From Candidatus Latescibacterota bacterium (GTDB lineage: Bacteria; Latescibacterota; UBA2968), in the NCBI GenBank assembly GCA_965205975.1, contig OZ242195.1:4800001-4864000 (forward strand): 64,000 nucleotides of DNA. Reading direction: 5' to 3'. A program made the translations under genes and the position numbers. This document shows, piece by piece, positions 52,478 through 52,882 of the stretch. Position 1 is the first letter of the stretch. Every line of letters begins with the position of its first letter. A model generated the notes under the pieces. That model did not search any database and had not been told where the DNA came from. It saw nothing but the letters and a program-made list of their open reading frames with translations.

Positions 52478-52882
52478 CTATGACTTCAGCCTGATGGGCA
52501 TTAGCAATGCCAGCCATTCCGCATTCAGGGGTGTGCGTAAGATAATCGCTTTTCCCTGTCCTCTAAATTCCATTGTGATTTCATCGCTGTCTTCAAAGTC
52601 CAGAGCATGCAGGATTTTTTTTAGATATGCGAAGTTCACGGCGTTGCGTACGATGCTGTGTAACCAGGGTCTAAATCGGTCGGGTTTGCGAAGTTGGTGC
52701 AGATTTTCGTACACTTTGATAAATACGATTTGAACCAGGTCTTCTATGTCGTCAACCAGTCGTATGGATCGGGCAATTTGGGCATACACATATCGCGAAT
52801 AGCGTTGCACCAGAATTGCGAATGCTTTGCGGTCGCCGTCCAGAATTTGAGCGATGAGCGCGCTGTCTTCAATCTGTTCCAC
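52478..52882 (-). CDS. ECF sigma region 2 fused to a DNA polymerase III beta-clamp-like C-terminal segment, possibly internally deleted
   Basis: GGAG before GTG 52882; GDRKAFAILVQRY...EDLVQIVFIKVYENL..FRPWLHSIVRN, then NFAYLKKILHALD...ITMEF...LLMPIRL. Confidence 0.65.
   Translation of the reverse strand: MEQIEDSALIAQILDGDRKAFAILVQRYSRYVYAQIARSIRLVDDIEDLVQIVFIKVYENLHQLRKPDRFRPWLHSIVRNAVNFAYLKKILHALDFEDSDEITMEFRGQGKAIILRTPLNAEWLALLMPIRLKS

Follow-up and report, generated by a model that had tools for sequence, protein, structure and literature searches.

A recent in-frame deletion allele of an ECF sigma factor gene with a fused half-clamp in a Candidatus Latescibacterota genome

Introduction

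In Bacillus subtilis, SigO and RsoA make up a two-subunit sigma factor, one chain of which contains region 2 and has no region 4. Other sigma factors of the ECF type are regulated through an extension of their own chain; in ECF41, as the relevant section of PMC8999054 describes it, a SnoaL-like extension contacts a linker motif and acts as a fused regulator. The peptide-pocket and dimer-interface residues of the sliding clamp DnaN are given in part of PMC11139829, and peptide antibiotics that target this clamp are known from sections of PMC11621423 and PMC10817943. A fusion of the two protein families appears to be new to the literature: the words clamp, DnaN and DNA_pol3 are absent from the main texts of PMC7826278 and PMC8999054 and from the examined part of the supplement of PMC7826278, and our literature searches (bioRxiv supplements and subscription journals were outside their scope) returned no description of a sigma-clamp fusion.

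The window, by which we mean the whole stretch of 64,000 nucleotides under analysis, contains a short open reading frame that a sequence-only reading had described as ECF region 2 fused to a tail like the C-terminus of DnaN. We refer to this frame as the remnant and to the intact gene of related genomes as the parent. The parent would be an undescribed variant of the extension-regulated ECF sigma factors, and the allele in the window is a real, recent deletion. Like the SnoaL-like extension of ECF41 (PMC8999054, in the section used here), the half-clamp of the parent would serve as a fused regulator; the parent differs from the extension-regulated ECFs in the examined parts of PMC7826278 and PMC8999054 in that its extension has the fold of beta-clamp domains II-III. 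With DnaN (PF00712/PF02767/PF02768) the parent shares the domain II-III fold (Z 24.2) and residues of the peptide pocket, but it is without domain I, has lost interface residues, is fused to a sigma factor and is distinct from the dnaN of the same genome. As in PCNA and gp45, two clamp domains are present per chain in the parent tail, although this tail is closer to DnaN II-III in both sequence and fold. The remnant, finally, resembles the SigO-RsoA system in having region 2 and no region 4, but it arose by deletion from an intact gene, and its neighbours are PhyH and DHDPS genes, with no region 4 partner adjacent.

Results

The remnant and its junction are made up of the following features.

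52478..52882, minus strand: remnant ORF, 134 aa from GTG, an in-frame deletion allele of the ECF-clamp fusion gene
52478-52903, minus strand: longer call of the same ORF, which starts at an upstream TTG (52903) and has 141 aa
52888..52891, minus strand: GGAG resembling a Shine-Dalgarno site, 5 nt upstream of the GTG, recognised from sequence
52643..52882, minus strand: ECF N-terminal helix and sigma region 2, parent residues 1-80 (PF04542)
52478..52642, minus strand: end of beta-clamp-like domain III, its last helix and strands, parent residues 399-452 (PF02768; alignment with E. coli DnaN)
52633..52643, minus strand: deletion junction, where a single hybrid remains of the two copies of an 11-bp near-repeat (Ala-Val-Asn codons); in two intact loci (L030, L031) the copies are spaced by 954 bp

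The GTG at 52880-52882 is the most likely start, because the GGAG spacing and the MEQIEDS start of relatives both fit it. The region 2 reported earlier for this ORF is borne out by a match to sigma70_r2 (PF04542, E 7e-12) that exceeds the curated cut-off of Pfam, and the sigma2 side (query 1-98) is 79-88% identical to orthologues in 13 genomes and 73% identical in G001. The Pfam scan found no sigma region 4 in the ORF, in agreement with the same reading, and the remnant is thus an incomplete ECF (group 4) sigma factor whose chain has region 2 and lacks region 4. The proposed likeness of the tail to the DnaN C-terminus stands by way of the full-length relatives; PF02768 itself stays below its cut-off (E 0.09 for the whole ORF and 0.019 when the tail is taken by itself; the score is 15 bits, the cut-off 27). 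Because this match is weak, the clamp likeness is a lead when judged from the window alone, and it is the full-length relatives that establish it. The tail of about 54 residues, all that is left of the clamp fold, carries equivalents of N320, Y323, M362, P363 and R365 in the alignment with E. coli DnaN, and the elements of the structure model at parent residues 396-445 cover the part that was retained, whereas every pocket residue of domain II has been lost. Neither the DNA of the remnant nor the tail has a second copy in the genome.

The remnant protein matches both ends of a single open frame of 460-479 codons in genomes of the genus. Full-length relatives measure about 452-468 aa and possess regions 2 and 4 together with a clamp-fold tail; the syntenic orthologue, at 454-468 aa, is among them. 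When the DNA of the window is compared with the genus, 11 of the 18 genomes of a first draw give two long blocks (query 60-1268 and 1258-2361) that lie approximately 0.95-1.0 kb apart, and three others (G001, G002 and G013) are split at the same junction into shorter pieces. Intact genes carry Ala-Val-Asn at residues 81-83 and again at 399-401, and the remnant joins the first of these to the second; relative to the two intact genes measured (L030 and L031), 954 bp or 318 codons were removed in frame. The near-repeat reads C-GCCGT-(C in the upstream copy, G in the downstream copy)-AACT, so that 10 of 11 bases are alike and six are exact before the mismatch. It contains, at 52634-52642, the 9-mer that the sequence-only reading had noted as junction microhomology. 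The in-frame outcome follows because both copies of the repeat share a codon phase. That reading was therefore right to see here what a deletion had left of a longer sigma-clamp fusion, as the architecture of the syntenic orthologue and the joined Ala-Val-Asn codons attest, and the fusion it postulated does exist; what it did not anticipate is that the clamp of the parent is not whole and comprises domains II-III only.

Public sequencing runs contain the junction as well as the intact form. At least half of the sequence words searched for are present in 5 of the 22 runs listed, and the assembled contigs of four runs were compared at the junction. Contigs without any difference from the window span it in X1 (229 nt) and, in a different study from X1, in X5 (151 nt); their short sides of 25 and 14 letters are both below the bridging rule of 31 letters. 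X1 also has a loose end at 52633 that leads into the intact gene, X2 has such ends at 52633 and 52643, and X6 shows the intact-type end only. The shared contig stops at the same position, 52638, in X1 and in X2, and this fits a two-way branch. At the X1 branch the junction contig is the deeper one (82 of 115), a depth that does not equal a share of cells. A 504-nt contig of X1 over sigma2 and the promoter is unbranched and common to both alleles, which suggests that the deleted and the intact allele sit in one close population. X1-X4 are possibly the source samples, and RNA runs contain only 0.07-0.09 of the words searched for. Assemblers collapse only words far longer than an 11-bp imperfect repeat. 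An assembly error that collapsed the near-repeat would account for the loose ends of intact form in the best-matching runs and for the short side of each spanning contig, but it is very improbable given exact junction contigs from two studies, a shared contig end at the same position in X1 and X2, and a repeat far under the word length of assemblers. As the public runs hold both forms, we consider the deletion a recent polymorphism and not a misassembly.

The intact parent consists of ECF sigma2-sigma4 followed by clamp domains II-III, the extension being about 283 aa long. Among six full-length relatives scanned with Pfam, region 2 scored above cut-off and region 4 was present. Of the 167 other genomes of the phylum (Candidatus Latescibacterota), 65 contain a long match to a profile of the tail, at E 2e-49 or better; there is one match per genome, in four families of a single class, and none in the other classes; of 25 loci with names, 22 are assigned to Latescibacterota or Latescibacteria and 2 are of Gemmatimonadota type. 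At the level of 50%-identity representatives, 34 proteins fell below 1e-30 with this profile. Scans of 54 of the best 150 representatives showed a sigma region plus tail in 32, DnaN-like proteins in 9, and a tail alone or with other small additions in 13. In the ESM Atlas the tail gave only leads below 0.9, to clamp-like clusters, and P0107 retrieved a cluster of 60 members, named hypothetical protein, with sigma families only. In NCBIfam, the sigma70-ECF superfamily was the only model to pass its cut-off among the best 25 matches. Two proteins, P0056 and P0147, are half-clamps that stand alone without a sigma part and carry a SEC-C-like Cys motif at the C-terminus; in P0054 a zinc-ribbon-like part at the N-terminus takes the place of that motif.

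The clamp identity of the parent tail is seen at several levels: the tail matches the genome's own DnaN across domains II-III (E 3e-9), matches solved clamps by profile (E 2e-12) and by Foldseek (E 3e-14), and, in an AlphaFold model (pLDDT 89.5), residues 177-451 superimpose on residues 133-377 of 7evp_B with Z 24.2 and an rmsd of 2.4 A over 230 residues. The tail does not amount to a three-domain chain, since the structural alignment reaches clamp residues from about 125 to 377 and leaves domain I uncovered. The dN/dS values in the genus (sigma2 0.17, linker 0.15, sigma4 0.06 and tail 0.15) place all four regions of the parent under purifying selection. The separate DnaN of the genome has three domains and 391 aa; this protein, encoded around 4157700-4158900 of contig C1 of the same genome (G000), carries, in comparison to E. 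coli, an acidic stretch of some 15 residues inserted between domain I and domain II.

Pocket and interface residues were assigned with the lists in part of PMC11139829. In 79 tails, the residues of the pocket (subsites I and II) R152 (61/79), L155 (57/79), T172 (58/79), G174 (67/79), N320 (72/79), M362 (70/79) and P363 (76/79) are mostly kept, and H175 (33 tails) and P242 (32 tails) are variable. The interface residues I272, L273, E298 and E304 of the same source are replaced in these tails, the domain I positions I78 and F106 are absent, and an insertion of about 25 residues adjoins the interface strand in this genus. Over 46 positions conserved in DnaN, 49 divergent tails keep 70% at the 15 pocket positions versus 41% at the 31 others (p 3e-4), a comparison in which many pocket residues are also structural and in which the DnaN set (n=56) was chosen by length and likeness to the tails. 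As far as these alignments go, the half-clamp of the parent keeps the peptide pocket and loses the ring interface.

A second conserved element lies in the linker between sigma2 and sigma4. A Gln directly after sigma2 is present in 58 of 59 rows and, among members below 50% identity, in 32 of 33, conserved like the core residues of the sigma factor, and 31 of the 33 divergent members have L, F, W or M three residues past it. Examples are QLDLL, QLNLL, QLRLF and QMELF; this genus has QLRLE (QLRLEE, without the last hydrophobic residue). Of the 33 members, 26 show the core pattern, against 1 among 30 control ECFs from this lineage that have no clamp part; the controls include several orthologue sets and are not 30 independent cases, and three more could not be parsed. 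The full clamp-binding consensus, either as a pentamer (Q-phi-x-L/M-F/L) or as a hexamer, is found in only 14 of 59 rows and, among the divergent members, in only 6 of 33. The linker Q-x-x-(L/F/W/M) resembles a clamp-binding motif, a lead and not a result. In both AlphaFold models the motif continues the last sigma2 helix (H67-99) and does not form an extended peptide, and the models give no contacts for it; in the better model the pLDDT is 59 at residues 91-100. Because both models hold this stretch helical, the motif may instead be one face of a helix, in contact with RNA polymerase or with another part of the tail.

The surroundings of the gene comprise the following features.

52924..52950, minus strand: candidate bipartite ECF-type promoter, CGACAC-TTT, 12 nt, TCGTCT, from the upstream sequences of 43 family genes
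52963..52989, minus strand: terminator-like hairpin between the phyH-like gene and the promoter candidate (consensus match only)
53004..53822, minus strand: PhyH-family dioxygenase gene, upstream, syntenic in the genus
51582..52469, plus strand: DHDPS-family gene, convergent, its stop 8 bp from that of the remnant

Upstream of most of the 43 genes (judged by eye) a two-part motif is present, which we take to be of the ECF type and which in other families has the form GGATAC, 15-16 nt, GCATCT or GCAACT. Of 21 genus genomes, 17 have the candidate at this locus, and it is absent there in the four that are without the gene; it is probably recognised by the intact sigma factor itself. Strict and looser promoter patterns gave 2 and 7 matches in the own genome, of which only that of the gene itself clearly precedes a gene start (flanks by eye), and a search over 21 genus genomes with up to 1 mismatch added 4 matches, about the level of the reversed control. 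Target genes beyond the sigma factor's own were therefore not found in the own genome and the genus search. Near-perfect copies in G090 and G091 (L141 and L142) are aimed into the 3' end of a gene on the other strand, presumably part of a BlaI/BlaR1-like operon, and nothing is evident at the locus of the promoter-like match in G011.

When the best ATG after sigma4 is taken, every gene (43 of 43) has an AGGAG-like site ahead of an in-frame ATG where the tail begins, compared to 41 of 331 other Met codons under a rule stricter than that of the 43/43 count. The site spans different encoded residues (KGE, KGA, KE and EE), and GAG is rare in the genus (35 of 285 Glu codons). This putative internal ribosome site may yield the half-clamp as a free protein. 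It is a lineage habit of sigma fusions, because seven other long ECF fusions (L121, L125, L126, L127, L130, L136 and L139) have a ribosome-site-like sequence and an in-frame ATG right after sigma4.

Across 30 loci, no neighbour is shared between families except a PhyH-like gene (family-restricted neighbours being unannotated), and hence no conserved anti-sigma partner is seen. The parent accordingly resembles extension-regulated ECFs in having an extension of more than 50 aa and no conserved anti-sigma gene nearby in these loci.

The loss in the window is recent and has parallels elsewhere. The remnant has two private amino-acid changes, and its dN/dS of 0.07-0.28 against 14 orthologues, a measure unable to separate a just-dead from a working gene, is like that among intact genes over the same columns (0.148); few private changes and such values imply a recent loss. 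Among 21 genus genomes, 15 have the intact gene (15 of the 20 others), two carry different deletions (G000, with the window, and G003), and four (G009, G011, G017 and G018) have no gene, as judged by a missing tail and, for the last three, by reading the locus, so that the deletion allele of the window is seen in 1 of 21. In G003 (C143, L034) an independent deletion fused the codons that follow VQLR with the final two, and only sigma2 is left. Further broken copies are truncations in G107 and G130 and an internal stop in G079. The parent gene is conserved but dispensable. A metagenome member of the fusion family, P0080, is without most of sigma4 and the beginning of the tail, apparently through another in-frame internal deletion.

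Discussion

We conclude, with a probability of roughly 0.75, that the window contains a recent loss-of-function allele and that its parent is an ECF sigma factor with a fused half-clamp, most likely a built-in regulator. The 954-bp deletion cost a single-copy ECF gene its linker and sigma region 4 and, on the clamp side, domain II together with most of domain III. From the known anatomy of sigma factors, a chain without region 4 would not recognise the -35 element; from that of clamps, the 54-residue tail is a piece of one domain and should not fold; and as the promoter looks self-recognised, the remnant is probably hardly transcribed. The remnant is very probably a dead allele. The sequence-only reading had offered a minimal functional chimera as its alternative, and in the form of a mini-protein, e.g., a sigma2-only competitor for core RNA polymerase or one half of a two-subunit sigma factor, this idea could draw on an in-frame deletion that left start, ribosome site and promoter intact without a stop or frameshift, on the deeper junction contig at the X1 branch (where depth is not a share of cells), and on the independent retention of sigma2 alone in G003. 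We nevertheless think it improbable: the codon phase of the repeat explains why the frame was kept, the allele co-occurs with the intact form and is present in one of 21 genus genomes, the adjacent ORFs include no sigma4-only partner and the genome no second tail copy, and four genomes of the genus have lost the gene entirely.

As to the parent, the most likely role of the half-clamp would be that of a built-in anti-sigma factor or sensor fused to the sigma factor. The pocket would grip a short peptide, possibly the sigma factor's own Q-x-x-L linker motif, and so hold the sigma factor off; a competing clamp-binding ligand would free it to fire its own promoter. Self-docking of the linker, released by competing clamp ligands, is the mechanism we tentatively prefer, followed by binding of an outside ligand or of DnaN, with a ring as the least likely. 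A link to clamp-binding ligands or replication stress, which had been suggested from the sequence at the outset, stays conjectural for the parent, and the conserved pocket and linker motif add sequence support to it. Carried further, and speculatively, the parent may be a one-protein sensor of sliding-clamp occupancy, for whose pocket clamp-binding proteins, phage clamp inhibitors or clamp-targeting peptide antibiotics would compete, with free half-clamp from the internal start as a buffer and with the allele of the window as a still-segregating natural null.

The linker motif might instead dock on the real DnaN, or the half-clamp might bind outside clamp-binding proteins or clamp-targeting natural products, without self-inhibition and with the binding positioning or activating the sigma factor. 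The retained pocket, the separate three-domain DnaN (391 aa) of the genome and the existence of clamp-targeting peptide antibiotics (sections of PMC11621423 and PMC10817943) are in line with this arrangement; however, the conserved neighbours and promoter targets included no recognised dnaN, repair or resistance gene, and a fused half-clamp would be superfluous for a motif aimed at DnaN, and we regard it as somewhat less likely than self-docking. For a trimeric ring of the PCNA kind, or some other DNA-binding oligomer, built from the two-domain tail, it speaks that two clamp domains per chain are what PCNA has and that PCNA chains match at Z 14-17; yet beta clamps match better (Z 18-24), the interface residues I272, L273, E298 and E304 are replaced, and in this genus the insertion of about 25 residues sits beside the interface strand, all of which makes a ring improbable.

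The remnant itself is ordinary gene decay. The parent would be an instance in which the docking pocket of the replication clamp has been turned into the regulatory part of a transcription factor, a case that our literature searches did not return, and the linker motif makes its switch concretely testable. Intact and deleted alleles paired in the same public runs offer a natural knockout for a regulon search in an uncultured lineage.

Other features of the window

Between 53004 and 58527, three PhyH-like dioxygenase genes and a sulfatase-like gene occur within 6 kb (the first was scanned, the others were judged by eye). Two small adjacent genes at 53855-54650 on the minus strand presumably encode a DUF433 protein and a PIN-like (DUF5615) protein, a probable toxin-antitoxin module. 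A short repeat at 51500-51556 is present in several copies in this genome, in G004, in G015 and in others.
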